The notes below the pieces were generated by a model that was given only the letters and a program-made list of their open reading frames with translations, did no database searches and was not told the DNA's origin. A stretch of DNA of 56,410 nt from Eubacteriales bacterium (GTDB lineage Bacteria; Bacillota; Clostridia; Oscillospirales; CAG-272): contig JAZOVD010000035.1 of the NCBI GenBank assembly GCA_045658525.1, forward strand, positions 1 to 56,410, given 5' to 3'. The translations under genes were made by a program, and so were the position numbers. Below, piece by piece: positions 21,399 to 49,899 of the stretch. The first letter of the stretch is position 1; each line of letters opens with the position of its first letter.

Positions 21399-21421
21399 AT
21401 CTATGTAGGAGAAGGAATTTT

Positions 21422-24138: not shown

Positions 24139-24168
24139 AAAACGCGCCTCTCGGTGCGTTTTTTATTT
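24132..24168. terminator. bidirectional terminator
   Basis: AAAATAAAAAACGCGCC-TCTC-GGTGCGTTTTTTATTTT. Confidence 0.8.
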
Positions 24169-25091
24169 TATCTCTTTATAAGTCCTATAAGGCTCTTAAC
24201 GAGTATGAATAAAATATTCGCTATGTAAACGGGTACGGATACGACAAACAGCAGTACCGAAACGATAGCTGTTATCAGCCCACACGCAACAGGCATCATA
24301 AGCCAAAACGCGATAGATATATACTTCATAGGCGAATACCACGGATGATAACTGAAATTGTCCTTTATGTCCGAACCGAATTCAAGGCTATTTTCCCATG
24401 CATCGCGTATCATGCTCCACATATTGCTTATCCAGTCAACGGGGATAGCTCCTATATCGGAAAGCTCTGCCCAGCCGTTAAACTTAAAGCAACCGAATAC
24501 CGTGTTATCTATAAACGAAACGACGAAGTTCTTTACCGATACCGCTATATCGACTACGAGAGATACTCCCGCGGTAAGAGCGATAAGCGCTACCGCAAGC
24601 GAAATTATAGCCGAAACTATTGCAAGAACAAGAGTGATGAAGAACAGAAGTATGCCCATAACCACCAATATTCCGCATATCATTATAGCCACACCCATAG
24701 CTATATTCATCCATTTACGGAACGAAAGCAGCTTATAGTTTTGCGACTTTGTAAAAGCTCCACGCGCAAAATCTATCTCGTTTTTAATGGTGTTTACAAC
24801 AAGAGATTTAACAAAGCACCAAGCGTGAGCAAGTATGCTTAAAAACATATTACTGCTCGTGAACATATACCGTGTATCGTTTATCGCATCAGGTATCGAT
24901 TTGAATAAAGCGAACACCGACACAACAACACCAAATATCGCGCCGATTATAACGAAGGCGAGAAGTATGTATGCACCTATCCATAAAACGGCTACTACAA
25001 TTATCGCCGCAATGACAAGAAGCGTCATAAGCCAACCAAAGCAGTCTGCGCACGCTTCGTCGCGGTCGTAATAAACTCGTCTGTAAAACAT
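24168..25091 (-). CDS. multi-pass membrane protein of the Hsp70/GTPase operon, internally duplicated
   Basis: Long hydrophobic segments; MWSMIRDAW resembles LWHTIREAW of the membrane GTPase. Confidence 0.8.
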   Translation of the reverse strand: MFYRRVYYDRDEACADCFGWLMTLLVIAAIIVVAVLWIGAYILLAFVIIGAIFGVVVSVFALFKSIPDAINDTRYMFTSSNMFLSILAHAWCFVKSLVVNTIKNEIDFARGAFTKSQNYKLLSFRKWMNIAMGVAIMICGILVVMGILLFFITLVLAIVSAIISLAVALIALTAGVSLVVDIAVSVKNFVVSFIDNTVFGCFKFNGWAELSDIGAIPVDWISNMWSMIRDAWENSLEFGSDIKDNFSYHPWYSPMKYISIAFWLMMPVACGLITAIVSVLLFVVSVPVYIANILFILVKSLIGLIKR

Positions 25092-25126
25092 AGTTTAAAT
25101 GTCCTTTTTGGAGAATTTCCAAAGCG

Positions 25127-26194
25127 TCAGACGCTTTGGATCTTTACCGAATTACCGGTCATTTGGATCTGAAGCCTTACCCTGAGATTAAGCTCACTTG
25201 ATTGCTTCTGGATCAGATCACTGATCATTGACATAAGCTTCTGCTGAGTATATTGGGGTATATCAAGCGTAAACTCCATAGGAAGCTTATTGTTTTCAAG
25301 GCAGTCGCGTATATGATTTTTGACGTCGTAAAGACGGGAGAAAACCTTTCCTCCGTTACTGCCTGCGGGAACTATACGCGTGCCGCCGCTTGTCGCAGAG
25401 CCGTAAGTAACACGCTGCTGTGTCTGTTGCTGACTTACCGCAGAGCTTCTCGGCATCTCGGACGCGGTCATATCGCGGTCACATCTCGGCAGATCGGACT
25501 GATCCCATTTATATCCGTTATCGGAAAAAGTCTTTGTAGAGCAGTTTATCCTATGATAACGGAACGGCTCCGTCTTAGCGGTATTCGCACCCATCATCAT
25601 AGTAACGTCAGTATAGTAATACGTTCCGTCTATACGGATCATATTCCAAGCGTGCGGCTCGTGTCTGCCCGAGTTAGGATTATAAACCTCGCCGTCAACA
25701 ACTATACACCATATACTGAGCAGATCCATAGCGTACTTAAACGCCTTGGAGATACCGCTACACTGCGCGGTCTTGAAATAAAGAGCCGCAGCAGCGTTCT
25801 GGTTCGTTGTATTGTTTATCGCGTACGATACCTCTCTCGCCATTTCATCGATTATCTTGAACTCTTTTTCAAGCTCGTTCTTTGGAGCTTCTGAGATCAC
25901 TCTTTTGGAATACTCGCGCAGATAGGTATCAACCGCCTTGACCTTAGCTCTGTCATATATATAAGAAAGCTTTATCACCAACCTCACCAGCTGCATCCCC
26001 GCGCCGATAGCGGGGCTTACGTTATAAAGCTCCGGGTGGTCCTTGCAAAAGCAGTTGAACGCGTTTTTTACGGCGTTTGGATTTGGCAACGCCATTACCG
26101 TCGCGGAGGGCTTACCTGCCGCGACGGCTGAGCGTATAGCGTCGTATATTCCTTTTTCCGCGGGACTGAGCGTCCCTTTCCAGAATTCATTCAT
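25127..26194 (-). CDS. transglutaminase-like cysteine peptidase domain protein
   Basis: Triad motifs AQCSGIS, HAWNMI, YYTDVT; Gln-rich linker and small C-terminal domain; no signal peptide. Confidence 0.85.
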   Translation of the reverse strand: MNEFWKGTLSPAEKGIYDAIRSAVAAGKPSATVMALPNPNAVKNAFNCFCKDHPELYNVSPAIGAGMQLVRLVIKLSYIYDRAKVKAVDTYLREYSKRVISEAPKNELEKEFKIIDEMAREVSYAINNTTNQNAAAALYFKTAQCSGISKAFKYAMDLLSIWCIVVDGEVYNPNSGRHEPHAWNMIRIDGTYYYTDVTMMMGANTAKTEPFRYHRINCSTKTFSDNGYKWDQSDLPRCDRDMTASEMPRSSAVSQQQTQQRVTYGSATSGGTRIVPAGSNGGKVFSRLYDVKNHIRDCLENNKLPMEFTLDIPQYTQQKLMSMISDLIQKQSSELNLRVRLQIQMTGNSVKIQSV

Positions 26195-26202
26195 TCGACA
26201 TC

Positions 26203-26871
26203 TTACCAGGAGTTGTTGCCGTAATCGAATACCTCATCTTTAAGGCTACTTATGTAGTTTATAAGCGCGCATACACATCCGTAGATGACTCCGGGCGTTA
26301 CTATTACAAATACAGCAGCCAGCCAGTACTTGATTATAAACTGATAGATCGAGATAAAGAATCCGCTTACAACGAACCAGACCACTTTAAGAACGATAAT
26401 GATAAACGCAACGATAACGTAAATAACGAATCCGACTACGAAAGTAAGCGCGGCAACTATGAGAACTGCGGCTATAGCCGAAACTATAAGATGCTCTATG
26501 AAGCCGTCAAAGGTGTCGCCGGTCGCGATGAACGCAACGATAAGAGCTGCTATGAACGCTATCGTAGCAATAGTCCAGTAAGTGCCTGACCAGAGGAACT
26601 TGCCGTAGTAGTTAGTTGCGAAGTGCCAGTCCTGGTCTCTTATACAGTTTACAAGACCTACGCAAAGACACGACAAAACGTAAATTCCAAGCAATACGAC
26701 TATGTTTGTTACTACCGAAATGTAGAAGTTATTAGTGTCAAACTCATCGCCACTTCTTATCTTTTTAACAAGGAAAACTATAAACTCAATGAAAGTAGCG
26801 GCAAAGAACGCTACAACTACCCAAAAAAGGTTTGCGTCAACGAAATCAACGACGCTCTGAAAATATTTCAT
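26203..26871 (-). CDS. multi-pass membrane protein
   Basis: About six hydrophobic segments; co-oriented within the operon; start uncertain (26910/26883/26871). Confidence 0.75.
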   Translation of the reverse strand: MKYFQSVVDFVDANLFWVVVAFFAATFIEFIVFLVKKIRSGDEFDTNNFYISVVTNIVVLLGIYVLSCLCVGLVNCIRDQDWHFATNYYGKFLWSGTYWTIATIAFIAALIVAFIATGDTFDGFIEHLIVSAIAAVLIVAALTFVVGFVIYVIVAFIIIVLKVVWFVVSGFFISIYQFIIKYWLAAVFVIVTPGVIYGCVCALINYISSLKDEVFDYGNNSW

Positions 26872-26894
26872 ACCTGTAACCATCCTTTCTTCTG

Positions 26895-28334
26895 TCAATG
26901 CTTCTTCCATACGGCGGAGAGATCGAGCGACTTGTTCATCTTATCAATGATCCAGAACAAGGGCTTCTCAACGTCCTTAGGCTCGAACGCCTCGCCCGTC
27001 TCGTTATGACCGAGAGCAGAGCAGGAGAAGAACTGTACAGTCTTGAACTTACCCTTTACGGTATTAAGGAAGCTGCTTTCGCCGTTATCGGTAAGGAACT
27101 TTTCGCAGACCGCGTTATAAGCATCGCACTCGTCCACCTTTGCGTTCTTACTCATATATCTCGAAACCGCGGCGCGTCCTATCTCATCGTCAAGACCGGG
27201 AATATCGTTTTTGGTAAATACTATTACTACCGAGGCGTTGATGGAGTCGGTAGCCTTCTTATGATAGAGGCTCTCCATAGTGTTTATAAGTCCTGTAAGA
27301 ACGTCACTCATAGGCTGAGCGCTTCCGTTGTACTTATTAAACTCTTCATTTCCAAGCTTCTTTTTAAGATCCTGACTGTACTCGGTTATAGAGAGCGGGT
27401 CAACGACGAGAACTATACCGTCCGCAAAGCGGTAGCCCTGCTGACCGGAAATAGCGTCCTGATTGGTAAACACCTCTCCCGCTATATCACAAACGGAGAT
27501 AAGGTTATCTATCTTAGCATTGTTGGGTTTGAGGTAGAAGTTGTAGTACTTGAACGCCATATCACCCGTCTTCTGGGGAACGTAACCTGCGTTCATACGC
27601 TTCATATTGTCCTGATAAGCGTCGCCCTGAACGAACTGATACTTATATTCAAGACCGAAAGTGGGGGCTTTCTTCTCTATCTGCTCGATAGCCATACTTA
27701 CAAAGCAGGTCTTACCGGAGCTTGCTCCGCCGACGACGGGGATAAGGAGGTTGGTATGTACGCCTTTAAGTGCCTCGCAATGACAGTGAGGACAGAGAGA
27801 ATCGAGGTGCTGTCTGCCGTTTATGAAGGTAGTGGGGAGTCTCTTTCCGCACTTACATCTTCTCTTGAATATACCGTAACGGCTGGGAACGAGCTTACGG
27901 TGCTGAGCCTTACAGCTCGGGCAGATATACACGGGGTGCGTGAACTTTCTTTCACATCCCGGGTTGTAACAGTTGTTACCTATTCGTTTAACGGCACAAT
28001 ATACCATATCAACGAGCTTCAAGAGCATAAAGCCGAGATATACGCCGATCATTATAACGAAAAGAATAGCGATATGAGCAAGCGAGAACACAGCGGTAAA
28101 GATAGTTCCGAATATTGCTACGCTTACGAGTATCATCGCCTTGAACAGGGTAAGACAGATAGCGGAATATACGTTTCTGTCGCCCCAGCTGTCAGCGATC
28201 TCTCCGGCAGAGTCAGATATCTTCTCAAAGTTACTGATCCACGCCTCTCTGATGGTGTGCCAAAGATCGGTGTAGCTTCCTCCGAAGAAGTAGCCTGTTT
28301 GCGCCGGCTCTTTGTATTTTGTTTTCTTTGACAT
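26895..28334 (-). CDS. TRAFAC-class GTPase with N-terminal membrane segment and Zn ribbons (double-GTPase system type)
   Basis: GGASSGKT (G1), DIAGE (G3), TKND (G4), SALG (G5); CPSC, CKC, CPHC. Confidence 0.85.
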   Translation of the reverse strand: MSKKTKYKEPAQTGYFFGGSYTDLWHTIREAWISNFEKISDSAGEIADSWGDRNVYSAICLTLFKAMILVSVAIFGTIFTAVFSLAHIAILFVIMIGVYLGFMLLKLVDMVYCAVKRIGNNCYNPGCERKFTHPVYICPSCKAQHRKLVPSRYGIFKRRCKCGKRLPTTFINGRQHLDSLCPHCHCEALKGVHTNLLIPVVGGASSGKTCFVSMAIEQIEKKAPTFGLEYKYQFVQGDAYQDNMKRMNAGYVPQKTGDMAFKYYNFYLKPNNAKIDNLISVCDIAGEVFTNQDAISGQQGYRFADGIVLVVDPLSITEYSQDLKKKLGNEEFNKYNGSAQPMSDVLTGLINTMESLYHKKATDSINASVVIVFTKNDIPGLDDEIGRAAVSRYMSKNAKVDECDAYNAVCEKFLTDNGESSFLNTVKGKFKTVQFFSCSALGHNETGEAFEPKDVEKPLFWIIDKMNKSLDLSAVWKKH

Positions 28335-28339
28335 TGTTG

Positions 28340-31021
28340 TCAATCCCCTTTCTTTTTGCCCCCGAAGATCTTACCCCAGAAGCCCTTATGATTTTGTTCG
28401 TAATAATTTATATAACGATCGAGAACGCTCTTATCCTCGATTCCGTTATTTTCAGTTTTAAGAAGTATGTCGAAAAGCTCACGTCTCTTTGACTTACCGA
28501 TAGAGTCAAGATACTCGTCTGCTATCGCTTCAAGAACGTCCTTGAACGGTCCGTTCTTGGTAAAGAGATAATTGAGCAGGTATCCTATATACTTCTGCGC
28601 GAGATAGGAATTTCCTTTGAGCGATCTTACGTACTCCGAAGCGAAGTTGCTGCTCAGAGAAAGAGGCTTTATAAGTGCCTCGTAGAGCGGCTCGAACGGT
28701 CCGTTAGTACCCGTTTCAAACATAGTATAAACGGTGTGGAGCGCGTAATCAAGGTTCATCGAAACAAAATCGCACGCGGTCTTATCGTCCGAGCTTTTCA
28801 TAAGGGACTCTATCGCTCCCTGCTGTAAGAGTCCATTGATAACTCCAAAGCTCTTCTGATCGCCCTTAGCTGAGTGAGCGAGGTATCCGCCTATTATATA
28901 AAGCTCAGCCTTTGAGTCGATATCGATTCCGAGCTTCTTTGAAACGTCGTGTATGCGGATCATCGTTCTTACGTCGATAACTCCGCCTCTTGCTATGCTT
29001 TCAAGCGACTGCTCGCTGAATATACCGTCGCATATCGCGGCAAAGAGCTTACCGTCCGTGCAGGCATTTGAAGCTCCGAATATCTCATCAAAGAAGTACA
29101 GTGCTTCCTTTACGCGGTTTTTCGCGTTCTTGTCCGCGAGATAAGCAGCGACCTTGTTTCTGAATACCAAAGCGGTCCTTGCGGCATAATCGGGGTTATT
29201 GTACTCCGCGCAAACGAACTTGCGGTATCCGTCCATTATCTGTTCCTTGGTCTTTGTCTGCTCCATCTCATATTTACATATAAGCGTACAGTCAACGAAA
29301 TCCTTTATCTCTCCGCTTCTCGAAGAAAACGCTCCGAGCTTAGCAACAGCATCGGGATGACGCGTTTCAAGCTCTATATAACCCTTAGCGCATCTGAGAT
29401 ATACGTCGGGGTATATCGTGACCATCTTTGTAAGCACGGTCCAGAACGCTCCGCCGCTCGTTACACGGCGTTCAAGATAGTTGAACAGATAGCTTACGTC
29501 GTTATGGAAATACTCCATATCTCCCGATATAACGCTTACGAAAACGTTTGCCGAAAGCTCGGGGGAGATGGAATCCGCTTTTTTTTGAACAGCATCGAAG
29601 CGAGCCCCGTCGTGAACCTTTACAAGCTCTGCGTATATACCGAGAACGTAATGAAGTATCTGTTTTCTGTCCTCCTGAGCGGCTACGGTGTACATATCGA
29701 GCATAACAAGAGCCGAAAACAGTCCCGTTTCCTGTGAATCAAATGAAAGTATGCGGCGCATAAACGTTTCGCCCGAGAACATCGCAAGCGCGTCCTGCCA
29801 CTTGCAGGGGCAGTTGCTCTTGAAGGTATCGTATATAGCGTCCTTGGTATTTTTAAGTATGCCGTCCATATACGCCATCATAAGCTTTTCCTGCGAAGGT
29901 GCAGAAAGACGCGTATAGAGATAACGGTATATATCGAAAAGCTTATCGGAGCTGTTTATCTCCGCGGAGCTTATAACGTATTCAAGTGCGCCCTCGGCGA
30001 CCTTCTGAACGTTCTCCTGCGGATTTTCGCATACGAGCTTCAATATATTTACAAACTCATCGGTATCCTTGACCGCGCTGTAATTTCCGTGGACCGCGCC
30101 AAGTATCTTAGCCGCGAGATCGCAGTCGGTTATATGGTAACGGTCAAGCACCGAGACTATCTCGTTAACGGAAAGGACTGTATCGTAGTAATCGGAAATG
30201 AGCTTTTCGGTTATAAGATCCGCATAAACTCCGACCTCTGCCTCGTCGCCGTCCTTTTCGGCGTTAAGAGACATTACCTCTGTCGTATAGGCAGACTGAG
30301 CGTAGAAGCCCGCGTTGTTGCCGGGATACATACAGCAGAGAGTAACGTTATCAGAGCTTGATATGACGTACGTGCTGAAACTGAAATCCATAATCTGGGT
30401 GCGCGGTATCATAAGTGAGAGAGCGCCTACCCAATATTTCATATTTTCAGGAGCATCGGTAAAATATATGTGCAAGGTCTTGCTCATTGAGCCGAGAACT
30501 CCGGAAAGAAGCTTTTTAAGGATATTTTTCTTTTCAGGTGTATTGAAAAACGAGTTTATCTCTCTTTCGCTTATCGCTACGCCCGCGTCGTTTATCTCGA
30601 CCTTGGGGAGCGGCGGAGGATCGGACGGAGCGTTAAGCTCCGCATCGGTAAGACGCGTCTTGAAAATTCCGCTTCCTATAAAGTTGGCGGGTATCATTCC
30701 TTCCATATCGTCCGTAACGTAAGCGTGATAAATGTAGTTACCCCAACGACCCGTATAGTCCTGACCGACGTAAGACGCCTGAGCTATACAGTATCTGCCG
30801 CTGGCGAGACGGAAAAACGCGACGTTTTTCGGGAAAAGACGCTCTATCTCATCAGCCGTAGGAGTAAACGGAAGCGGAGAGGGCGCTTCATAACGCATGA
30901 CCTTGTGTATCTCATCAACCTCTGCCGCGGTAATATCGGTGGATTTGGAATATACCATATATCCCTTTTTCGGAGAATCTCCGTTTTTCCAGGAGGTATA
31001 GATAAGCTGGCTTGCTAACAT
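28340..31021 (-). CDS. GTPase-associated protein 1 (GAP1-N/GAP1-M)-like protein with long helical C-terminal region
   Basis: SQLIYTSW..G...GY, YVGQDYTGRWGNYIYHA, FSFSTY; sits between two paralogous GTPases. Confidence 0.7.
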   Translation of the reverse strand: MLASQLIYTSWKNGDSPKKGYMVYSKSTDITAAEVDEIHKVMRYEAPSPLPFTPTADEIERLFPKNVAFFRLASGRYCIAQASYVGQDYTGRWGNYIYHAYVTDDMEGMIPANFIGSGIFKTRLTDAELNAPSDPPPLPKVEINDAGVAISEREINSFFNTPEKKNILKKLLSGVLGSMSKTLHIYFTDAPENMKYWVGALSLMIPRTQIMDFSFSTYVISSSDNVTLCCMYPGNNAGFYAQSAYTTEVMSLNAEKDGDEAEVGVYADLITEKLISDYYDTVLSVNEIVSVLDRYHITDCDLAAKILGAVHGNYSAVKDTDEFVNILKLVCENPQENVQKVAEGALEYVISSAEINSSDKLFDIYRYLYTRLSAPSQEKLMMAYMDGILKNTKDAIYDTFKSNCPCKWQDALAMFSGETFMRRILSFDSQETGLFSALVMLDMYTVAAQEDRKQILHYVLGIYAELVKVHDGARFDAVQKKADSISPELSANVFVSVISGDMEYFHNDVSYLFNYLERRVTSGGAFWTVLTKMVTIYPDVYLRCAKGYIELETRHPDAVAKLGAFSSRSGEIKDFVDCTLICKYEMEQTKTKEQIMDGYRKFVCAEYNNPDYAARTALVFRNKVAAYLADKNAKNRVKEALYFFDEIFGASNACTDGKLFAAICDGIFSEQSLESIARGGVIDVRTMIRIHDVSKKLGIDIDSKAELYIIGGYLAHSAKGDQKSFGVINGLLQQGAIESLMKSSDDKTACDFVSMNLDYALHTVYTMFETGTNGPFEPLYEALIKPLSLSSNFASEYVRSLKGNSYLAQKYIGYLLNYLFTKNGPFKDVLEAIADEYLDSIGKSKRRELFDILLKTENNGIEDKSVLDRYINYYEQNHKGFWGKIFGGKKKGD

Positions 31022-31071
31022 TGGTATTTCTCCTTTCTTGCGGTAATAAAAGCCGCTTATGGTTGTTTATC

Positions 31072-32226
31072 TTATATGGTTTTTATATACTTGTTTATAG
31101 AGAGAAGCCAGAGAAGCGGGTCAAGAACTCTGACAGGCTGAGGCTCACCCATAAGCTGAGAACCGCCGACAGGGTTTTCGCCAAGAGCCGAAACTCCAAA
31201 GAACGCATGCTTAGAGAACTCTTTAAGAAGCTGCATTACCTCATCAACCATAAAGTTTTCAAGCAGTGCTTCTATTTCTATGTTCGTGTTTTCAAAATCG
31301 GATTTTACAAACGCGCCTTTAGCTATATGCTCAGACTGGGCACGGAGACAGCTGTCCTCGGGAAGTACGTCATAGCGCGCAAGAACGTCCATCTTAGTAA
31401 ACGCAAGCGCTATCGGTATATCTATACAGCCTCTTATCTTTTTCCTATCCTTTATTATATTTATAACACGGCGGAGTATATCGGTAACATCGCTGTTCTG
31501 CTCGGGGAGATCGACCTTTCCTTTAAGACGGTCTCTTATCATAGGAAGCTGCAGGGGGTCGAGAAGAACTATTATACCGCTCGCGTTAGCGATATACTGG
31601 TTATTACAGAGCATACTTGTCTCGGTGTCGAGATTTTCTCCCGCGGTATCGTAAAGAGAAAGCGTGACCGAGTTTTTGATCTTATAGGATCTTGACTTTG
31701 TGTCAAAGAAGTCTATGGAGTATATAAGCGGAGCGGACTCGACGTTAGCGTCGGTACCCTTAACGGTAGTAGCGTTCTCGTAAAGCGGCTTATAATAAGT
31801 CTGTTGATACGCGTCGCTCGTCTGCTGATTACAGAATATAAGAGAACAGTCGAGGTTTCTGGACATCTTCTTCTTTATCTCGTTTATCAGAACCGCTATA
31901 TAGTTGGATTTTCCCGCCTGCTTTGCTCCTATGAGCGCAACGGAAAAGTTATTTCCGCAGGCGCGCTCAGGTATCTCCCACATCTTTCCTCCGTTACGCT
32001 TGGAGGGGCAGAAGCGGGAAAGCTTGGCGTTATCGCACTTCATACATTTTCCTATGTATTTGAAGGGGATAGTGCCGTCGGGATTTTTCTGGAAATCAAA
32101 TTTACACGTTCTTTTTACACCGTTGGCGTCGTTCTTCTTGCCGTCGATGTTGTAAGAACAGGTGTAGATACAATCCTTTTGAGTGTGTCTTTCGTAACAG
32201 TAAGGACATATAAACTTATCTGCCAT
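31072..32226 (-). CDS. TRAFAC-class GTPase with N-terminal Cys-rich Zn ribbon (double-GTPase system type)
   Basis: CPYC; GAKQAGKS, YDTAGE, LLDPLQL, TKMD, VSALG, PLLWLL. Confidence 0.85.
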   Translation of the reverse strand: MADKFICPYCYERHTQKDCIYTCSYNIDGKKNDANGVKRTCKFDFQKNPDGTIPFKYIGKCMKCDNAKLSRFCPSKRNGGKMWEIPERACGNNFSVALIGAKQAGKSNYIAVLINEIKKKMSRNLDCSLIFCNQQTSDAYQQTYYKPLYENATTVKGTDANVESAPLIYSIDFFDTKSRSYKIKNSVTLSLYDTAGENLDTETSMLCNNQYIANASGIIVLLDPLQLPMIRDRLKGKVDLPEQNSDVTDILRRVINIIKDRKKIRGCIDIPIALAFTKMDVLARYDVLPEDSCLRAQSEHIAKGAFVKSDFENTNIEIEALLENFMVDEVMQLLKEFSKHAFFGVSALGENPVGGSQLMGEPQPVRVLDPLLWLLSINKYIKTI

Positions 32227-32260
32227 TGTCTTTTAAAATACCTTTCTTTATCGCTTTTTA

Positions 32261-35200
32261 TCAGAGTTTCATTACGGGTTTGAGCATAAGGTGTCCGACA
32301 GAGGGTGAGCTGAAAAACAAGCTGAGCTTATCCTTCATACTGCCTGCCGCATCGACAGTTACCGTAGCGGTGTAGAAGTAACCCTGCTTAAAGAGCTTCT
32401 TCTTCATCTCTCCGCCCTTCATAGTTCCGACAGTAACACCGCCGTTCTTGTTAAGGGGCTTCGGATAACCGCCTACTATATCTATATCGGGAAGCTCCAT
32501 CATTCTGTCCGCCATAAAGGTAAGTCTTACCTTATACGGTGCTCTGACGGAAAGCTCGTAATCCATCTGATATTTTACTATCTCTTTTTCTCTGTTGTCT
32601 ATAACGTCGGGAAGCGGAGTAGGTCTTGAATAGGTTATCTTACCTGCCTCCGAGAACTCCGCGAACAGAGTAACGTAATATATACCGGGCTTTAAGTTCA
32701 TATAGAAGCCCTTATCGCCGACGAACGTATCATACGTACATACTCTGCGCTCGCCCTCAGCCTTCTCCGAATCAACGAACTTTTCGGAGTTGATGATAGC
32801 TATTACGTTACGGACGTTAGGAGCTATCGCGCCCTCGATGAGGATATTTCCGCCCTTGTTTACTACGTTTATACCGTCTATACCCTTTATCGTGTTAACG
32901 GGAAGCGGCGGACAGATTACCGCGAGCTGCTCGTTGGCAACAACGGGATAGAGCCAGAGTATCTTCTTATCCGGTGCGCTGAAATAGAACTTGGTATCTG
33001 ATACAACGGTAGCGTCAAGCTCACTGAGATCCTTGTACTTCTTCTGGAAGGTTGCCTTATCCTCCGCTATACCGAAGGCGTATTCGTAACGTCTCTGAGC
33101 GATATAAAGCTTAACCGCTCCGTTTACAGGCATATCGCACTCGAAATTGAAATCGGTATGAGCGCCCGCTGAGGTAAGCTTGGGATTTGTGATCATCTTC
33201 GGGATACTGAACCTCTTATAAGAAGCCTTTATACCCGCAGAATAATGCTCTTTTCCAAGATAATTGTATTTACATACGACGAGGTAGCTGTTCTTATCCT
33301 CTTTGAGGTCTCTGTCAACGAAGCTGTTAAGACCCTCGGTAGGAACGCGCGTTCCGTCGTTTATCGATGACGGCGGTATAACGCCCGGCTTACGATATAC
33401 CTCAACACTCTTAACGTTATCCGGAACGCTCCACGTCGCCTTTATCGAATCGTCTGTCTTTTCCTGATGGAGATTGGTAACGTCAAGGAACATTACGACG
33501 GGATTAGGCGTTATAACGAGCTTTGAGCGAACACCTCCGCGCTCCGCGAATACTCCGTAGAAGTACGCGGTTGCGGAAACGACTCCCGAATCCTCGAAGA
33601 AGTTTATGGTAAGACCGTCCTCAAGAACCTCTCCGTCCTCGTCGTTTGCGGGAGCGGAGCCGATCTTACGGAGTATCGTGTACGTTACCGCGCTCTGATC
33701 CCCCTCGGTCTGCCAATCTATCTTTACAGTATTTCTTACTATTCTCGTGGTTATGATTCTCGGGGCCTTCGGCGGATAATTTTTAAGGACCTGTACCGCC
33801 GCCGCGTAGTCGGAGCAAACCTCAAGAGCCTTGCCGCAAAATTCTATCGCGCCGCTCTCGTTGTTCGTTTTCATAGCGTTATTTGCCATATTAACGAACT
33901 GCTGTGCGCTCTTTATAGCGGCGTTTATCTTATCGTCAAAGGTCTTGGTATCGTAAGTGGGAGCCTCATTTTTGAGTTTCTTTACGAGATCCTCCGCCTT
34001 ACAGAACTGCTTTTTCGCGAAAAGGACGTTTATTTCCTTTACGTACTTATCGTATATAGCGTCGCTTTCCGCTTTTTCCTTTTTCTTCTTATCTATCGCC
34101 TTCTTGGCTTCGGCTATACGCTTGCTTACGAACGCCTGCGGGAGCTTTTCGTATCCGGGGAAAACGTTTTCGAGCTTATTAAGCGCGGCAACGAGATCTA
34201 TCTCGGAGAACTCGGGGGCGTGAAGCCTTGCGTTGAAGTCCTTTTCGGCGTTATTGAAATCCGTCTGATGGTTTTTGGTAACGGAACACTTGGAGCAAGC
34301 CTGATGCTTAGAGGTAAAGAGCGATATTTCGCCACAGTTCCAGCATCTTATTTCGAGCGATCTTCCGCAGTTGGGACAGGTCTTTACGCCCGGCTTTACG
34401 ATGTAGGACATTCCGCACTCGTCGTAAGGACAGACGGCGAACTTCATCGCGCCGCCGCTCGTCTCACGAACTATTCCGAAGAATTGCAGGTAAGCGTCCA
34501 GCTCCTTTTCAGCCTCGTCAACAGAGAGCTTCGTGGACTGCTTCATTATGTCCATAAACTCGGTAAGAAGCTTATCGTTTATATTCTTTATACCGCTGTT
34601 CTTGAACATCTGGAGCTTTTCCCAGATCTGCTCTCTGCACTGGCAGTATATATCGTATTCCTTCTTACCCTGCGCGGTCTTGAAAACGACCTTAACGAGT
34701 CCACAAAGGTTGATTATAGCGGTCGCCTGAGCGTTCTTACCCTGCTTCTGAGCGGCTGAGTAAAGCGCGTCCTGCTTGTTCTTTATTTCGTCGAGGCTTG
34801 CCGCGGGGGTAAGGTCGAGGAAATCGTACAAGTCCTTTTTATTTATCGTTCTGAGCTGGACCTCTATCTTGCTGAGGTTGTTGAACGGCACCTCTCTCTT
34901 TGTCGAGGCTGACTGCTTATACGAAACGCCCTGCTTGAAAAGATGCGATATTTTAGAGTGAAGCTCTTTTTCATCAACAGCGTTCTTTTCGGCTATCTGA
35001 GATAACTCATAATCCCAGATATATCCACGTCCGCAGATAGACTCCGCCGCCGCTACGGCAACGCTGAGATATATGCTTTTCGCTCTCTGGGCTTCCTGCT
35101 TACGTCCGCCCTTGTTAGGCGCGTACGAGGACATGCCGGTATTCGGGTCGGTCGTATAGACCGCGTCATTGAGCATTATCTGGTCTATATCCTCTTTAAG

Positions 35201-35380
35201 CTCAACGAGACGGCTGTTTATAACGCTCTGCTCTCTTGCGAATGTGTTTCTTTTCTTCTTTATGGCATCTTCAATCTTCGTTACATCCGTCTCATCAACG
35301 TTTATCTTGAACGCGATAAAGTAGTTAAGGTCGGGATTTTGAAGCTCTGCCGCGGTTCTTATTTTACTTGGTGCCGCCAT
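32261..35380 (-). CDS. multidomain protein: degenerate J-like domain(s), double Zn ribbon, TPR-like helices, FN3/Ig-like domains
   Basis: DLYDFLDLTPAASLDEIK...KKEYD without HPD; CPYDEC/CPNC/CWNC/CSKC; AIEFCGKALEVC; VKIDW...YTILRK...YFYGVFA. Confidence 0.75.
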   Translation of the reverse strand: MAAPSKIRTAAELQNPDLNYFIAFKINVDETDVTKIEDAIKKKRNTFAREQSVINSRLVELKEDIDQIMLNDAVYTTDPNTGMSSYAPNKGGRKQEAQRAKSIYLSVAVAAAESICGRGYIWDYELSQIAEKNAVDEKELHSKISHLFKQGVSYKQSASTKREVPFNNLSKIEVQLRTINKKDLYDFLDLTPAASLDEIKNKQDALYSAAQKQGKNAQATAIINLCGLVKVVFKTAQGKKEYDIYCQCREQIWEKLQMFKNSGIKNINDKLLTEFMDIMKQSTKLSVDEAEKELDAYLQFFGIVRETSGGAMKFAVCPYDECGMSYIVKPGVKTCPNCGRSLEIRCWNCGEISLFTSKHQACSKCSVTKNHQTDFNNAEKDFNARLHAPEFSEIDLVAALNKLENVFPGYEKLPQAFVSKRIAEAKKAIDKKKKEKAESDAIYDKYVKEINVLFAKKQFCKAEDLVKKLKNEAPTYDTKTFDDKINAAIKSAQQFVNMANNAMKTNNESGAIEFCGKALEVCSDYAAAVQVLKNYPPKAPRIITTRIVRNTVKIDWQTEGDQSAVTYTILRKIGSAPANDEDGEVLEDGLTINFFEDSGVVSATAYFYGVFAERGGVRSKLVITPNPVVMFLDVTNLHQEKTDDSIKATWSVPDNVKSVEVYRKPGVIPPSSINDGTRVPTEGLNSFVDRDLKEDKNSYLVVCKYNYLGKEHYSAGIKASYKRFSIPKMITNPKLTSAGAHTDFNFECDMPVNGAVKLYIAQRRYEYAFGIAEDKATFQKKYKDLSELDATVVSDTKFYFSAPDKKILWLYPVVANEQLAVICPPLPVNTIKGIDGINVVNKGGNILIEGAIAPNVRNVIAIINSEKFVDSEKAEGERRVCTYDTFVGDKGFYMNLKPGIYYVTLFAEFSEAGKITYSRPTPLPDVIDNREKEIVKYQMDYELSVRAPYKVRLTFMADRMMELPDIDIVGGYPKPLNKNGGVTVGTMKGGEMKKKLFKQGYFYTATVTVDAAGSMKDKLSLFFSSPSVGHLMLKPVMKL

Positions 35381-35426
35381 TAGAAATTGCTCCTTTGCGT
35401 GTTTCTTGGTTTTGCTGAATTATTTT

Positions 35427-37550
35427 TTAGCTAAGGCTGACCTTGCCGCTTCCCTCTGTTATAGCCTGCGCTATCGTAGAGAACGCGCCCTTCAAGCTAT
35501 TGAGGTCAGTTTTAAGCGCGGATTCATCGGACGACGCTATCTTTTTGAGGAACGCTCTATCCGCATCCGCAAATCCGAGAGCGACTATGTCTATACCCTT
35601 GCTCTTTATCTTCTGAGAGTTGGCTATCTCCTCGGTAGCCTTGAACCACTGACCGTCGGTAAGAACGACAAGATAGTTCTTTTCGTCCATCTTTCCGAAG
35701 TTTGTGTTAAGGTACTCAAAGGGCTTACCGCTGGTCGCTCCGCCAACGTCGTGCTTGAACGCACAGGCGTCCTTTATAGCACCGTAAATATCCTTAATAC
35801 GGTTGGTGGGCTTACAGGCAGTCGTTACTCTGTCCGCAAAGACAACGACACCGATCTTACTGCTGGTAAGGTCCATATCGTCAACGAACGCACGTGCCGC
35901 CTGCTCGACCTTACTCATAGCCGAGGACATACTTCCCGAAACGTCTATTACGAGGTAGATGGTAGAGCTTATCTTTATCTCCTCTATCTTCGGAGCTTCA
36001 TCGACCCAGCTCATATCCTCGGGAACCTCGGTCTTGGTAACGGTAAGAGACTTACCCGTTTTTCTCTGAACGGCGGTAACGTCAACCATTCCGTTCTCGT
36101 TGTAGGTATAGGAAATATCTATAACCGACTCCTGCTCGGACTGAGGCTCTATTCCGCTTATAACGTACTTTCCGAGTATATGGTTATCACTCGGAACGAG
36201 ACTCTCACCTTGGAGTATATAAACCTCGATTATTCCGTCTCCGCCTCTTCTTGTGTTTATCTTGAAGGGCTTCTGCTGAGTCGAGGGAACTTTTTCGTTT
36301 TTAGGAATTATTATTGTGTTGACGTAACGGCTCTTATCCTCGGAAACAGAGATCATTCCGAGGCTGTGAGCGGTAACGTCGCGTATGGAGTCACTGCTGA
36401 GCGTAAGCACGCGTCTTGCGGGCTGAGATGCCTGACCTGCCAGGTTAGCGGTACGGGGAGCGGGACCGAGAGAAAGGGTTACGGTCTTTTCCGCGCATAT
36501 AGCCGCCTGTATCGCCGCGCCCTTGGCAACTACCGTATCAACGTTTACGTTGGTTATCGGGTACTTGCCGTACTCGCGCTTTATCATCTCCTTGACCTGA
36601 GGCATTCTCGTAGAGCCTCCAACGAGAACTATCTCGTCGATGCCCGAGCCGTCGGTGCTTTCGCCTATCTCGGTCAGACACTCGTTGATAAGGAGCTGGG
36701 TCTTGGAAAGAAGATCGCTTGTCTGCTCCTCGAACCATTCCTTAGTTACCTCGTATCTGCCTATGTTACCGTCACACGAAACGGTCGCGGTGACCTTTTG
36801 GAGATTGGTGAGCTTCTTCTTTACGTTTTCGCACTCGACCTGAAGCTCGTTTGACTCCTCGGGATAATCGTCGATACATACACCGAACTCGTTTTCAAAC
36901 GATTCGGCAAGATAGTTTCTGAGTATGAGATCCCAATCCTTACCTCCGAGCTGATGGTCGCCGTTCGTTCCGAGAACGCTGACAACAGAGCCCTTAACGT
37001 CCGCTATGGTAATATCGAACGTTCCGCCTCCGAGGTCGTAAACCATTACCTTCTTATTGCCCTCTCCGGTAAGACCGTAGGCTATTATAGCCGCTGTCGG
37101 CTCGTTTATTATTTTGAGAACCTTGATACCTGCGGCTTCACCTGCGTTTATGGTAGCCTGACGCTGAGCCTCGTTGAAGTACGCGGGAACGGTAATGACC
37201 GCGCCGTCTATCTCAACGTTGTTCGCCATCTCTATATCCTTTATAAGCTCTTTCAAGTATATTCCGGAAAGATCCTCGGATGAATAATTATCCCCATCAA
37301 GGTAAAGAGAAAAGTTTTTGTTACCCATCCACGTTTTGTAGAAAGCCGCGGCGTTCGCGTTACCCGCGCTTTGAAGGCTCTTAGCCTCACTTCCTATCGT
37401 AACGCTTCCGTTCTCTATGAAAACGACGGACGGAGTATATTCGTCTCCGAAGCTGTTTTTAAGTATTACCGGCTCGCCCTTCGTTTTATCGAAGGTGGAT
37501 ACTGCCGAGTAAGTAGTTCCGAGGTCTATTCCTACGGTTATCTTATTCAT
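35427..37550 (-). CDS. Hsp70-family protein fused to a C-terminal vWA domain
   Basis: [32 protein letters not shown]; vWA MIDAS IDVSGSM, GGATS, LTDG. Confidence 0.92.
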
Positions 37551-37598
37551 AATCGGGATTCCCTTTCATAATGCTGTATTGTAAAAAAACAAAGTAAC

Positions 37599-37632
37599 GC
37601 AGACCCGCTTGTTTAAAAACAGGCAGGTCTGC
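37599..37632 (-). terminator. intra-operon hairpin after the first Hsp70
   Basis: Minus strand GCAGACCUGC...GCGGGUCUGC followed by a U-rich tract. Confidence 0.6.
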
Positions 37633-37646
37633 TGTGATCACTTAAA

Positions 37647-39269
37647 TTAAACGAGAGAGAGCTTCTTTGCCTGCTCGCTTCCCTCGGTGGATGCGCCGCC
37701 CGTAGTGGGGTCGAATACGAGGTTGGTCTCTATGCCGTTAACTACGGTCTTTATGGAGAGAACCGCGCTGGGGTTAAGGTCGAATACTACCTCAACAGGG
37801 GTATCGGGGTCAAGTCCGGTGGGAACGCTGAGAGGACCGGTATAGACCTCTACGCTGTTCTCGTAGTCGATAACGTCATCGTTGTAGTCGCTCTCACAAA
37901 CGGTTATGGAGGTAGCTCCGCCTATAACGAGATCCATTATACCAACGTTAGTTCCGTTGCAGGGCTTGGGAGTACCGGTCTTTATGAGGTTTACAACGAA
38001 GTTCTTCTGCTGGGTGCGATCCCAAACCTTAACACCGTAGCTCTTGTTAGTTATATCGTCAACGCTGATGCTTCCCTTTTCGGTCTTTATCGCTATGCCC
38101 TGAGAACCGTCGTCGCCTGCCGCACCTGCGGAAGCAGAGGGAGCAGCCGTACCGTCGCCGGCGTCGCCGCCGTCAGCAGTAGCACCTGCGTAAACGTCGG
38201 AGAACGCAGCCATAAGAGCCGCACCCTTAGCAACAGCCTCGTCAGGCTCGAAGCTTGCGAGAGGCTTGCCGTAGGTAGCATCGAGTATCTTTGTTACCTG
38301 GGGCATTCTGGTAGAACCGCCGACGAGGATTATCTCATCAACGTCGTCTATGGTCATATTCTGTGCTCTGAGCATATCGTCAACGAGAGATATGGTCTTG
38401 TTAAGAAGGTCCTCGGTAACGCTCTCGAAGGTGTCACGGGTTATCTCCATTACCTGCTTGTTACCCTGGAAGCTTACGGGAAGCTTTATAGCCTCACGCG
38501 CGGTAAGCTGCTTCTTAGCCTTTTCGATGTTCTCGGAGAACCAAGACTGGCACTCAGCGTCACTTCTCATTTCGTCGGGGTCAGCACCGGTAGCGTTGCA
38601 GAACTCGTCTATAACGTAGTTGGTGAACGCCGCATCCCAGTCCTTACCGCCGAGGGTATGGTCACCGTTGGAAGCTATAACGCGGAGCTTCTTGTCGTCG
38701 CCGTTGAAGTCCATACGGAGAAGCGTACAGTCGAATGTTCCTCCTCCGAGGTCATATATAAGAACGTTCTTGTTAACGTCCTCGTTCTTGATGTAAGCGT
38801 AAGCGAACGCAGCCGCGGTAGGCTCGTTGATTATCTGATAAACGGTAAGGTCAGCGTCCTCAGCAGCTTTCTGGGTAGCACCTCTCGCGATAGTTCCGAA
38901 GTACGCGGGGCAGGTTATAACAGCTCCGTCGATGGTGTCTCCAAGAGCCTCCTCGGCGTCCTTTTTGAGCTTACGAAGGATAAGAGAGGATATGGACGAG
39001 GGCGAATAAGCCTGACCGAACATATCTATCGTGTAGTCCTTGTCTCCCATAAGAGACTTAACTCTCTCGATAACGTTCTCGGGGCTGAACAGCGCGCCTG
39101 CGCGAGCCTGCTCACCGACAACAACGTTGGTATCGCTTTCAAAGTAAACTATAGAAGGTGTTGTGTTAGCTCCCTCAGAGTTCTTGATAACCTCAAGAGC
39201 TCCGTTGTCATTGAGCCAGGATACGCAAGAGTAAGTTGTACCGAGGTCTATTCCTATTTTCTTTCCCAT
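37647..39269 (-). CDS. non-canonical Hsp70-family protein lacking the helical lid
   Basis: [40 protein letters not shown]; 540 aa; Ala/Gly/Asp-rich linker. Confidence 0.92.
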   Translation of the reverse strand: MGKKIGIDLGTTYSCVSWLNDNGALEVIKNSEGANTTPSIVYFESDTNVVVGEQARAGALFSPENVIERVKSLMGDKDYTIDMFGQAYSPSSISSLILRKLKKDAEEALGDTIDGAVITCPAYFGTIARGATQKAAEDADLTVYQIINEPTAAAFAYAYIKNEDVNKNVLIYDLGGGTFDCTLLRMDFNGDDKKLRVIASNGDHTLGGKDWDAAFTNYVIDEFCNATGADPDEMRSDAECQSWFSENIEKAKKQLTAREAIKLPVSFQGNKQVMEITRDTFESVTEDLLNKTISLVDDMLRAQNMTIDDVDEIILVGGSTRMPQVTKILDATYGKPLASFEPDEAVAKGAALMAAFSDVYAGATADGGDAGDGTAAPSASAGAAGDDGSQGIAIKTEKGSISVDDITNKSYGVKVWDRTQQKNFVVNLIKTGTPKPCNGTNVGIMDLVIGGATSITVCESDYNDDVIDYENSVEVYTGPLSVPTGLDPDTPVEVVFDLNPSAVLSIKTVVNGIETNLVFDPTTGGASTEGSEQAKKLSLV

Positions 39270-39311
39270 GATTTTTTCTCCTTGTGTGTTTTTTATTTAA
39301 ATTTTATTTTT

Positions 39312-40721
39312 TTAGAGCTTGTAGATTATGACCTTAGCGGGATAAACTACCTTATCTCCGTACATATAACAGTCGGAGCAGTAACGGGCAACGGTCTTTT
39401 CCTTGTCGCTCTCCTCCGCGGTTATCTTGGTCATTTTGAGGACACGGTGGTATTTCGCGTCGAATACGCGGTCTATCTCGCTTCTTACCGTAACGCCGAA
39501 GTTAAGCAGAAGCTTTTCAACGTAATCGGAAATATAAGTGTAGGTCTCTGTGTAGATGCAAGCCTTTGCCGCGTCGTCGGCGGCGTTTTTAAGAGCGTCA
39601 CATCTCTTTGCGAAATAGTCGCCTATCTGTATCATTTTAACAAGCGCGGGAACTATAAGCACTCCGTCGCAGACCGCCTGCTGCTTCTTGGAAGCAAGGA
39701 ACATACTGTTTATCGTGCTTACGAACGCCTCGTCTCTTGCGAGGAGCGTTTCTATGTTCTTTACGGACTTACCAAGCGCGTCGTAAAGCTCCTCGGCAGT
39801 AGTTACAGCCTTGAAATCGACCGCTTCAAGCTCAGGCTCGGCGGAAACGTATCCGTTACCGTCGTCGTTCGCCGAAGCCTTCGGGTACTCGGGAGTAGGA
39901 TATATCACCCTACCGTTGTAAGAGTAGATGCCGTTCTCCTCGGCAACTCCGTGTACCGAGAGAAGATCGTTTATCTGCTCGGCGGTACATTCAAAGTAGC
40001 TTATCAGCTTATCGCCCGACAGACCAAACTCGGTCATATCGGAATCGGACTTCTTGCAGTCCTCTCTGAAACCGATAAGGTCGTTTACAAGAGCCTTCGA
40101 GATTTGAAGGAAGTAATCGTCCTTGTACTTCTGAAGCTCCTTGTTGATGTTATAAACAGCGTCGTCCTTTGCCTTGGTGTTTCTTACCGAACGGAGCACC
40201 GTATCGTAGAACTCGGCAAACTTAGTCTTTATCTCCTCGTACTGATCGTCGGAGTATGTAGGCGCGCAAGGCTCGCATGCCGGTTCCTCGACAGCCTCCT
40301 CCGTCTCCTGCTCCTCAGTAACCTCAGGCTCCTCGTCAACAGTCTCCTCGACCGTTTCCTCAGCAGCTGCTTCTTCGACCTCCTCGGGAACGTCCTCTGT
40401 TTCCGCATCCGCAGCCTGAGCTTCAACGAACTCCTCGAACGTCACCTCGGTAGAAAGCGCGTGCTTTATTCCGTGAGCGGCGAAATAACCCGCGTTCACT
40501 CCGGAGAGTGCCTCGTCAGCTACCACTACCGTCGCGTCGTATCTTACCAGCTCTCCCATAGAAACTGAATCTATACCGCTTACCTCCACCTTTTCTTCAA
40601 GCATAGATTCCTGACATATCGCAACGATCTTCATCGAAGCGAACTTCGGGTCAGCGAGGACCCCTTCAACGTTGCTTTTTGATCCGAACAGAATTACTCT
40701 GTCGTTTGCGGTTATAAGCAT
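39312..40721 (-). CDS. GrpE-like nucleotide exchange factor with N-terminal extra domain and two tandem GrpE units
   Basis: LLNFGV...FDAKYH...YMYGDKVVYPAKV at the C-terminus; earlier LLSVHGV...YSYNGRVIYP; GGAGG RBS before ATG 40721. Confidence 0.75.
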   Translation of the reverse strand: MLITANDRVILFGSKSNVEGVLADPKFASMKIVAICQESMLEEKVEVSGIDSVSMGELVRYDATVVVADEALSGVNAGYFAAHGIKHALSTEVTFEEFVEAQAADAETEDVPEEVEEAAAEETVEETVDEEPEVTEEQETEEAVEEPACEPCAPTYSDDQYEEIKTKFAEFYDTVLRSVRNTKAKDDAVYNINKELQKYKDDYFLQISKALVNDLIGFREDCKKSDSDMTEFGLSGDKLISYFECTAEQINDLLSVHGVAEENGIYSYNGRVIYPTPEYPKASANDDGNGYVSAEPELEAVDFKAVTTAEELYDALGKSVKNIETLLARDEAFVSTINSMFLASKKQQAVCDGVLIVPALVKMIQIGDYFAKRCDALKNAADDAAKACIYTETYTYISDYVEKLLLNFGVTVRSEIDRVFDAKYHRVLKMTKITAEESDKEKTVARYCSDCYMYGDKVVYPAKVIIYKL

Positions 40722-40793
40722 TACCTTAGCCTCCACGCATAATATTTTCGTATTTTTACCGTATATTTTTCGGAAAAATCATACTCTTTGCCT

Positions 40794-40822
40794 ATTATAA
40801 CACACATATTTATTTTTTTCAA
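40794..40822 (-). promoter_or_regulatory. sigma-A promoter of the GrpE/Hsp70/GTPase operon
   Basis: TTGAAA-17-TATAAT with TG; no CIRCE element nearby. Confidence 0.7.
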
Positions 40823-40906
40823 TAGTTTTTTTGCATTTTTCCGAAAATTTCCTAACAATTTTTATATAAATATTAATTGATTGAACTTCACGATTTTCCC
40901 GAAAAC

Positions 40907-49876: not shown

Positions 49877-49899
49877 GAGCATTTTTATGCTCTCATTTT

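Follow-up and report, generated by a model that had tools for sequence, protein, structure and literature searches.

A ten-gene GAP1-N2/DO-GTPase locus with its own Hsp70 and GrpE genes, putatively a single operon, in a Clostridia genome

We analysed a stretch of 56,410 nucleotides from an Eubacteriales bacterium (Clostridia, Oscillospirales, CAG-272; assembly GCA_045658525.1, contig JAZOVD010000035.1), which is referred to below as the window. Its central part carries ten tightly packed open reading frames (ORFs), all on the minus strand and running from 40736 down to 24168, whose products include two Hsp70 proteins, a GrpE-like factor, two GTPases and a GAP1 protein. The locus is almost certainly a member of the GAP1-N2/DO-GTPase class, one of the GTPase-centric systems that were defined computationally as conflict systems by Kaur, Burroughs, Iyer and Aravind (2020, eLife 9:e52696, PMC7159879; all statements on this paper refer to its main text). 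The genes, here designated g1 to g10, and the signals at their borders are as follows.

40940-40911: terminator-like hairpin upstream of the operon, closing the preceding DAO-family gene
40794..40822, minus strand: promoter-like site, TTGAAA, 17-nucleotide spacer, TG-extended TATAAT, 11 of 12 consensus positions
39312..40736, minus strand: g1, 474 amino acids, GrpE-like nucleotide-exchange factor
37647..39269, minus strand: g2, 540 amino acids, Hsp70
35427..37550, minus strand: g3, 707 amino acids, Hsp70 with vWA domain
32261..35380, minus strand: g4, 1039 amino acids, putative cytosolic scaffold or sensor
31072..32226, minus strand: g5, 384 amino acids, soluble DO-GTPase2
28340..31021, minus strand: g6, 893 amino acids, GAP1
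26895..28343, minus strand: g7, 482 amino acids, membrane-anchored DO-GTPase2, its start overlapping the g6 stop by 4 nucleotides
26203..26910, minus strand: g8, 235 amino acids, polytopic membrane protein of no known family
25127..26194, minus strand: g9, 355 amino acids, transglutaminase-like enzyme
24168..25091, minus strand: g10, 307 amino acids, polytopic membrane protein of no known family
24130..24171, no strand assigned: terminator-like hairpin, putatively bidirectional, 19 pairs, AT-flanked, between the convergent g10 and decarboxylase genes

A first-pass annotation, made from the sequence alone, had described this region as a tandem, closely spaced set of ten genes with one promoter upstream and a terminator at its end. 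ORF calling on the window recovered all ten genes, with intergenic gaps from g1 to g10 of 42, 96, 46, 34, 50, −4, −16, 8 and 35 nucleotides, and the promoter-like site, as a consensus match, and the 19-pair hairpin were found at the expected positions. Over the scanned region, promoter-like sites numbered 25 against 21.0±4.3 in shuffled sequences, which is chance level, and the terminator scan over the whole region gave the same outcome, so that only the positions of these sites carry weight. Because g1 begins with GTG and has no clear Shine-Dalgarno sequence, its start is uncertain.

Concerning the two GTPases, both passed the Pfam cut-off of 27 bits for DO-GTPase2 (g5: 7.2e-10, 39.4 bits; g7: 1.9e-10, 41.2 bits). 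The g5 protein possesses two N-terminal zinc ribbons, a Walker A motif at G100-S107, including K106, and a Walker B motif at D193-T-A-G-E197; all 20 homologues keep the Walker A, DTAGE and [ST]KxD motifs and the cysteines of the zinc ribbons unchanged. In g7, an N-terminal transmembrane hairpin (approximately residues 60-110) is followed by zinc ribbons with CxxC pairs (approximately 125-190) and a GTPase domain with the motifs GGASSGKT, including K211, and D286-I-A-G-E290. No C-terminal transmembrane segment was indicated by hydropathy. The earlier description of a GTPase and a membrane GTPase thus held. Between them, g6 is recognized by the GAP1-N2 profile with a wide excess over the cut-off (2.8e-29, 102.3 bits against 24) and by that of GAP1-M just below it (3.4e-4, 21.2 bits against 24), and no GAP1-C domain was detected by Pfam, also when pieces of the protein were searched at E values up to 5. 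With GAP1-N2 once and DO-GTPase2 twice above their cut-offs, the proposed GAP1-like protein and the proposed membership in the double-GTPase/GAP1 class of the Aravind group were both borne out. The host genome contains one GAP1-N2 gene.

The chaperone part comprises g1, g2 and g3, and Pfam agreed with their annotation as GrpE, Hsp70 and Hsp70-vWA. In g1, a GrpE domain occupies residues 318-472 (1.4e-9), and an alignment of g1 with the genome's own GrpE reached an hhalign probability of 83%. The protein consists of an N-terminal domain without assignment (residues 1-100), a GrpE-like helical repeat (approximately 167-300), an acidic linker and the GrpE domain. A tandem GrpE had been proposed. 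An internal repeat (167-265 against 315-416) was indeed detected with a probability of 91.9% and an E value of 7e-7, on a shallow profile of four sequences, but Pfam sees one GrpE domain and no second one at E values up to 5 on pieces; what stands of the proposal is the repeat. A search of Protein Data Bank (PDB) sequences with g1 gave no match. The g2 protein has a full Hsp70 nucleotide-binding domain (HSP70, 1e-95, model positions 2-373), followed by a low-complexity linker and a short beta domain without lid. In g3, the HSP70 match (3.4e-102) is accompanied by a second HSP70 stretch on model positions 385-498 and by a vWA domain at residues 531-677 (4.3e-17). This protein is therefore built of a nucleotide-binding domain, a substrate-binding beta domain and, in the place of the lid, a vWA domain with the metal-ion-dependent adhesion site (MIDAS) motif D536-x-S538-x-S540 (DxSxS). 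Fusions of this kind are common, with 383 protein clusters, and all of the 120 listed have both Pfam families.

The host's housekeeping hrcA-grpE-dnaK genes are located on contig 62 (DnaK, 607 amino acids) and dnaJ on contig 45. A separate housekeeping locus is thus present, which rules out the operon as the sole dnaK locus of the organism. The operon and the housekeeping DnaK-DnaJ-GrpE set share the Hsp70 ATPase motifs (DLGTT, NEPTAA and DLGGGTFD are common to g2 and DnaK, and those of g3 also match DnaK), and a GrpE-type exchange factor; a putative J-like helical domain in g4 aligns in register with the J domain of DnaJ. They differ in that both Hsp70s of the operon are without the helical lid and score far under the NCBIfam cut-off for DnaK (g2, 320 bits; g3, 329 bits; cut-off, 648 bits). 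In addition, the J-like domains of the operon are without the HPD motif, and its GrpE, with 474 amino acids, carries extra domains.

We then considered g4, which had been described as a J-like/zinc-ribbon/TPR/FN3 protein. Pfam recognized a double zinc ribbon alone, under the cut-off (2.3e-4). An AlphaFold2 model with a mean predicted local distance difference test (pLDDT) score of 82.6 comprises a helical region (residues 1-300), zinc ribbons (313-365), a second helical region (369-532) and a series of beta domains (543-1039). The best Foldseek match of the model was to repeats 7-10 of fibronectin (1fnf, E value 6.4e-12), and on the predicted structure residues 543-1039 are confirmed as tandem FN3-type domains. 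Neither the fn3 nor the DnaJ family was found in g4 by Pfam, at E values up to 5 on pieces. The cysteines of the g4 zinc ribbons do not vary among homologues. Two J-like helical segments can be placed at approximately 18-90, by eye, and 180-250; residues 180-247 align in register with residues 3-72 of the genome's own DnaJ with an hhalign probability of 21.6% and an E value of 1e-3. The TPR_1 family gave an E value of 0.031, and the corresponding residues 369-532 are all-helical in the model. The FN3 and zinc-ribbon parts of the description therefore stand, and the J-like and TPR parts are weak. No signal peptide or transmembrane segment was seen in g4 by hydropathy or in the sequence, and we infer that it is a cytosolic scaffold or sensor, with the FN3 array as the likeliest ligand-binding surface.

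At the distal end, the predicted presence of two further membrane proteins and a transglutaminase-like protein agreed with the hydropathy of g8 and g10, both of which are polytopic and without a Pfam family, and with a Transglut_core match in g9 (9.3e-6). Searching pieces of g2, g8, g9 and g10 with Pfam at E values up to 5 brought no more than weak matches, and the ESM Atlas gave nothing useful for g8 (best score 0.77). All 6 homologues of g9 retain its triad, C145, H181 and D196; no transmembrane segment or signal peptide was seen in the protein by hydropathy or in the sequence, and a PDB sequence search gave a single match, the transglutaminase-like entry 9crn (0.004). We consider g9 a putative cytosolic cysteine peptidase of the transglutaminase-like type, or a transglutaminase.

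The composition of the operon was compared with the descriptions of Kaur et al. (PMC7159879). In that paper, DO-GTPases are recognized by a hallmark Walker B glutamate and often come in pairs of paralogues that bear N-terminal zinc ribbons, one of the pair being membrane-bound; the GAP1 gene adjoins a DO-GTPase gene, and the GAP1-N2 type adds an FNIII-repeat protein. A second theme, found in approximately 14% of GAP1-N2 neighbourhoods, includes HSP70 and GrpE, with a second HSP70 gene in a subset and an FNIII protein to which a DnaJ domain or TPR repeats are fused. Table 1 of the paper places the GAP1/DO-GTPase class in about 1,170 organisms. The operon resembles this theme feature by feature: it has paired DO-GTPases with the Walker B glutamate, zinc ribbons and one membrane-anchored member, a GAP1-N2 gene after a GTPase gene, an FNIII-repeat protein whose N-terminal part may be J-like/TPR-like, HSP70 and GrpE, a second HSP70, and further transmembrane proteins. 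It differs from the main text of the paper in three respects. The second Hsp70 keeps the substrate-binding beta domain and a vWA domain, and is not a nucleotide-binding domain alone; the membrane GTPase has an N-terminal transmembrane hairpin only; and a transglutaminase-like enzyme and two polytopic proteins are added. The figures or source data of the paper may cover any of these points. Its main text names transglutaminase for VMAP systems only. The first-pass annotation had regarded the two Hsp70s, the GrpE duplication and the extra membrane subunits as marks of an elaborate variant. This view was not upheld, as the theme was already described in 2020, the same core occurs in 21 related loci (see below) and the Hsp70-vWA fusion is present in 383 clusters. 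The operon is a member of a published kind and, its architecture having been published, is unsurprising as genome content. As a compact and complete example, with intact motifs, purifying selection and a sister species for comparison, it would be a reasonable template for a first cloning or structural study.

In order to find related loci, a pattern scan for GAP1 relatives was carried out with one genome per species, and the ORFs of the 21 loci obtained were searched with the ten proteins of the window. By record title, the loci come from Clostridia (Lachnospiraceae, Oscillospiraceae, Ruminococcus and others), a metagenome-assembled genome (MAG) of Bacillales, bins labelled Bacteroides or Bacteroidetes, a Desulfobacterales MAG, Candidatus Thiomargarita nelsonii (two contigs) and another Pseudomonadota MAG. 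Genes g5, g6 and g7 are present in all 21 loci and g4 in 19. An Hsp70 of the g2 type occurs in 16, and three more loci begin inside the next gene; a GrpE-like gene lies just upstream of the Hsp70 gene in 14, and Hsp70-vWA is found in nine. Relatives of g8 were identified in six loci, those of g9 in five and those of g10 in two. In nine further loci, the position of g8 is taken by a second family of transmembrane proteins of 233-246 amino acids, and a small polytopic protein follows the membrane GTPase in most of the related loci. The conserved core is thus nucleotide-exchange factor, Hsp70, in part of the loci Hsp70-vWA, FN3 scaffold, GTPase, GAP1, membrane GTPase and small transmembrane protein, and the transglutaminase g9 and g10 are lineage-specific additions.

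These results bear on whether the ten genes form one functional unit at all. One could suppose that the chaperone and GTPase genes are merely adjacent or are separately transcribed, as there are internal promoter-like matches in the operon (for example at 32601-32572 and 31706-31679) and the largest gap, 96 nucleotides, lies between g2 and g3. We regard this as very improbable. Promoter-like sites occur at chance level, the order Hsp70, g4, GTPase, GAP1 and membrane GTPase recurs in several phyla, with Hsp70 in 16 of 21 loci and three more cut off before it, the sister species G004 has all ten genes in synteny, and the linkage with Hsp70 and GrpE was already described in PMC7159879.

Several related loci show local changes. 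In an Oscillospiraceae MAG (L016:3254-8827), the FN3 scaffold gene is missing and five other genes stand between Hsp70 and the first GTPase, including those of an RCC1-repeat protein (3e-15) and a type IV coupling ATPase of the TrwB/TraG type (7.1e-42); the sensor module seems to have been exchanged here. In six loci (L018, L023, L024, L026, L028 and L029), a large protein of up to 990 amino acids, with no confident Pfam family, is encoded directly upstream of the GrpE-like gene on the same strand, and is a candidate variable effector for that clade. The L028 copy has a weak match under the cut-off to TNT, an NAD-glycohydrolase toxin domain (2.6e-5), and the L018 copy a weak match to the putative metallopeptidase family DUF6782. 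In L024, a Clostridia MAG, the homologues of g5 (7038-8154) and g4 (4079-7023) are each split into two ORFs, which may point to a frameshift, to an error of assembly or to a decaying system. A gene for a defence ATPase of the HEC-01 type (AriA/GajA-like) adjoins the GAP1 system in L033:19436-20636 (Thiomargarita) and L035:142-1328 (Pseudomonadota), and is split into two ORFs in the latter. Finally, a 905-amino-acid GAP1-like protein from another genus of the host's family (L011, G019:C16, 5830-8547, minus strand) is 21% identical to g6 over residues 51-317; as the other nine window proteins found no match around it, it represents a different type of GAP1 system.

The distribution in the host lineage is patchy, as was found when close relatives were surveyed for presence or absence. 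The host is a gut bacterium with a small genome; its assembly comprises 1.61 Mb in 108 contigs and is 88% complete. The GAP1 protein was detected in one of 12 other species of the genus (G004, 72% identity), in one of 12 other genera of the family, in the distant form just described, and in none of 16 other families of the order. Among 301 sampled genomes of the class, nine have the GAP1-N2 family (approximately 2-3%), seven of them above the cut-off, G000 included. In the sister species G004, the order of the ten genes is identical and the neighbouring radical SAM (rSAM) and decarboxylase genes are again those of the window. G012, G008 and G005 have this rSAM-decarboxylase pair but no adjoining operon, and the decarboxylase and DAO genes that flank the operon lie on different contigs in other species of the genus.

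Identities between the host and G004 are 96% for g5, 93% for g2, 92% for g3, 88% for g4, 82% for g7, 75% for g1, 74% for g8, 71% for g6, 58% for g9 and 52% for g10. The ratios of nonsynonymous to synonymous substitution rates (dN/dS), which are rough because dS is saturated, range from 0.024 to 0.29 over all ten genes, with g10 as the fastest-evolving gene (0.29), and indicate purifying selection throughout; the operon is therefore functional in both species. Constraint is strongest on the switch and chaperone parts and weakest on the putative output parts. The operon is accessory and intact, is maintained by selection and is probably horizontally mobile.

Next, the structure of the GAP1 protein was examined. 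The AlphaFold2 model of all 893 residues has a pLDDT of 84.8. Residues 1-130 form a beta-beta-alpha-(alpha)-beta-beta-beta domain and residues 160-255 a second alpha/beta domain; the remainder is all-helical, with a HEAT/ARM-like alpha-solenoid at 340-885. With the whole model, Foldseek returned alpha-solenoids only (Kap121 and PP2A-A, approximately 2e-4). When the protein was compared with 48,161 representative chains by VIA-align, three of the top eight matches were of the DENN type, each covering model residues 1 to 311-332, at root-mean-square deviations of 5.5-6.3 Å on the predicted model. The structural likenesses of residues 1-336 are to eukaryotic DENN modules (the Rab35 guanine nucleotide exchange factors DENND1A/1B, and DENND10) and bacterial TagF. 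TagF is known as a type VI secretion repressor, not as a GTPase regulator. No accompanying sequence similarity was detected: a profile of 20 GAP1 sequences gave no match to DENN or TagF among PDB sequences at E values up to 10, an hhalign comparison of the N and M regions with 12 TagF ORFs (one of them wrong-strand, from L045) gave a probability of 0.1%, and a search of the ESM Atlas with residues 1-260 found GAP1-N1, GAP1-N2 and GAP1-M clusters only.

Judged from the model, the N and M regions (1-336) appear to be DENN-like, with a longin-type alpha/beta lobe and a second alpha/beta lobe, and GAP1 N, M and C may be laid out like the longin, DENN and d-DENN domains in the exchange factors of Rabs. 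The partners differ, being Rabs for DENN and, here, DO-GTPases, and GAP1 adds an alpha-solenoid of 550 residues. We thus raise the possibility, to which we give somewhat less than an even chance, that GAP1 is a bacterial DENN-type module placed on a HEAT-like solenoid. The Rab/DENN exchange-factor switch of eukaryotes would then have a prokaryotic counterpart, and possibly a relative, in the DO-GTPase/GAP1 pair, which in this operon would be connected to an Hsp70-vWA chaperone threshold and to membrane effectors. DENN and d-DENN were regarded as eukaryote-specific inventions in a 2012 survey (PMC3521125, in the part that deals with them). The words DENN, longin and roadblock are absent from the main text of PMC7159879, and we found no published work joining TagF with DENN or treating bacterial GAP1 as DENN, the latter judged from titles and the beginnings of abstracts. 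The predicted DENN-like fold would be the sole point of this study that goes beyond what was found in print. If it is correct, GAP1 residues 1-336 should alter how g5 and g7 exchange or hydrolyse nucleotide, a concrete biochemical step for the class, and the similarity would bear on the origin of eukaryotic small-GTPase regulators.

What does the operon do? It is almost certainly a maintained DO-GTPase system of the GAP1-N2 type following the Hsp70/GrpE theme; that its role lies in conflict or immunity is slightly favoured, with about an even chance or marginally better. The catalytic motifs of both Hsp70s and both GTPases, the MIDAS motif of the vWA domain and the transglutaminase triad are all intact. 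A conflict role is favoured by the patchy spread across phyla, by the HEC-01-type ATPase beside the system in two gammaproteobacterial loci, by the weak TNT match in L028, by the fast evolution of the putative output genes g9 and g10, and by the arguments of Kaur et al. themselves as given in the main text (PMC7159879). The MoxR-vWA "ternary" conflict systems of the same paper provide a parallel. There, too, an NTP-driven chaperone acts with a vWA/MIDAS co-chaperone in a proposed thresholding step before variable effectors; the chaperone of the operon differs in being Hsp70 with a fused vWA domain, not a MoxR AAA+ ATPase, and the switch is a GTPase pair with GAP1.

A number of observations weigh against the conflict reading. 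PADLOC, a check that had been suggested along with the anti-phage role, gave no families for nine of the ten proteins and, for g2, a weak PDC-M61B match (2.1e-5), with no matching system model. No classical toxin domain was recognized in the operon. The window flanks consist of carbohydrate-active, surface and metabolic genes and are not a defence island, and the flanks of the related loci (76 ORFs of 19 loci, leaving out L015 and L034, which are duplicates of G004 and L033) are mostly housekeeping genes such as those of RecA, H+-PPase and FeoB; all HEC-01/AriA/GajA-type matches came from three ORFs in L033 and L035, and ten other large flanking ORFs gave no match in PADLOC. The dN/dS of the FN3 array (0.056-0.087) shows no diversifying selection between the sister species. 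No copy of the system was detected on phages, and plasmids carried only two, with 23% identity. The HPD motif is absent from 17 of 17 g4 homologues, which makes classical stimulation of the Hsp70 ATPase doubtful, and the J assignment itself is weak. Co-transcription is predicted from packing and gene order, on which the ten genes are a putative single operon. Of 18 sequencing runs listed for window positions 31000-40900, none is recorded as RNA, 16 contain part of the region and the best has 0.36 of the sampled words. Finally, no experiment on any member of the DO-GTPase/GAP1 class was found in full-text searches of the literature; a passage of a 2026 preprint mentions "recently characterized" DO-GTPases, with reference to computational literature.

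Much of this would suit a non-immune accessory machine in which the Hsp70/GrpE/J-like set and a GTPase pair under DENN-like control assemble, remodel or quality-control a membrane complex (g7, g8 and g10) or the envelope, under stress or in development. The transglutaminase would then cross-link or trim envelope proteins, and no invader would be sensed. The lack of a recognizable toxin and of a PADLOC system, the metabolic and housekeeping genes that surround the operon here and most of its related loci, and the plain purifying selection on all genes, the FN3 array included, agree with such a machine; elsewhere, longin/DENN platforms and small GTPases act in membrane dynamics and polarity, according to the part of the 2012 survey that treats them (PMC3521125). 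However, a presence in one of 12 species of the genus and approximately 2-3% of class genomes is odd for a basic envelope function, and the near-identical architecture in distant phyla points to horizontal spread, which is usual for conflict systems. Moreover, two loci have defence-type neighbours and one a weak toxin-domain match, and the host genome is small (1.6 Mb at 88% completeness), with no sign of a multicellular habit in the data. An envelope or proteostasis role seems rather unlikely to us, though it is the main rival reading.

The target of a conflict system need not be a phage. The system could exclude plasmids or conjugative elements, or discriminate kin, by sensing proteins of a transfer machinery with its FN3 and vWA domains. 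Hydropathy places the machine at the membrane, and in L016 the RCC1-repeat protein and the TrwB/TraG-type coupling ATPase lie inside the operon in the place of the FN3 protein. Nevertheless, this is one locus of 21, and the operon of the window neither contains conjugation genes nor adjoins any, so that we hold a non-phage target to be improbable.

Returning to the conflict reading, we can outline how a GAP1-N2 system of this kind might work. The FN3 array of g4 would bind a trigger, most likely a protein of the invader. The J-like/TPR-like N-terminus of g4 would dock the two private lid-less Hsp70s, one carrying a vWA/MIDAS peptide clamp, and the enlarged GrpE-like factor would reset both. 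ATP-driven remodelling would act as a threshold, the outcome of which would be passed on to GAP1. The DENN-like N and M lobes of GAP1 would set the nucleotide state of the g5/g7 pair, as an exchange factor or an activator, and its alpha-solenoid would act as a scaffold for the complex at the membrane that anchors g7. The GTP-bound pair might then assemble at the membrane with g8, g10 and g9, and the output would probably be membrane damage or proteolysis that aborts the infection. We doubt that the steps take place in exactly this order, and offer the scheme tentatively.

The remaining genes of the window were also inspected. Positions 21374-24138 (plus strand), beyond the distal hairpin, hold the rSAM/SPASM gene and the gene of the pyridoxal phosphate-dependent Orn/Lys/Arg-decarboxylase family, a pair that at least five species of the genus retain. 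The two ORFs overlap by 79 nucleotides, and the TTG start of the second gene has thus probably been called too far upstream. An aminoglycoside 3-N-acetyltransferase family gene (Antibiotic_NAT, 2.3e-47) at 43474-44247 (minus strand) stands beside two genes of the GDSL-lipase family, and the ORF at 46662-48761 encodes 699 amino acids with no Pfam family. A run of four small ORFs occupies 10867-13558 (minus strand), the first with an N-terminal match to camelysin (Peptidase_M73, 5e-6) and the others without family. Three ORFs of approximately 1,500 amino acids each, at 772-5334 (plus strand), 6155-10846 (minus strand) and 15280-19977 (minus strand), carry among them one set each of the following domains: sialate O-acetylesterase (SASA); Listeria-Bacteroides repeats; and four Laminin_G_3 domains with a sialidase N-terminal domain and a calcineurin-like phosphoesterase. 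They are likely to be large surface or glycan-acting proteins. The GC content is 0.40-0.42 at window positions 48001-52000, compared with approximately 0.46-0.50 elsewhere in the window.

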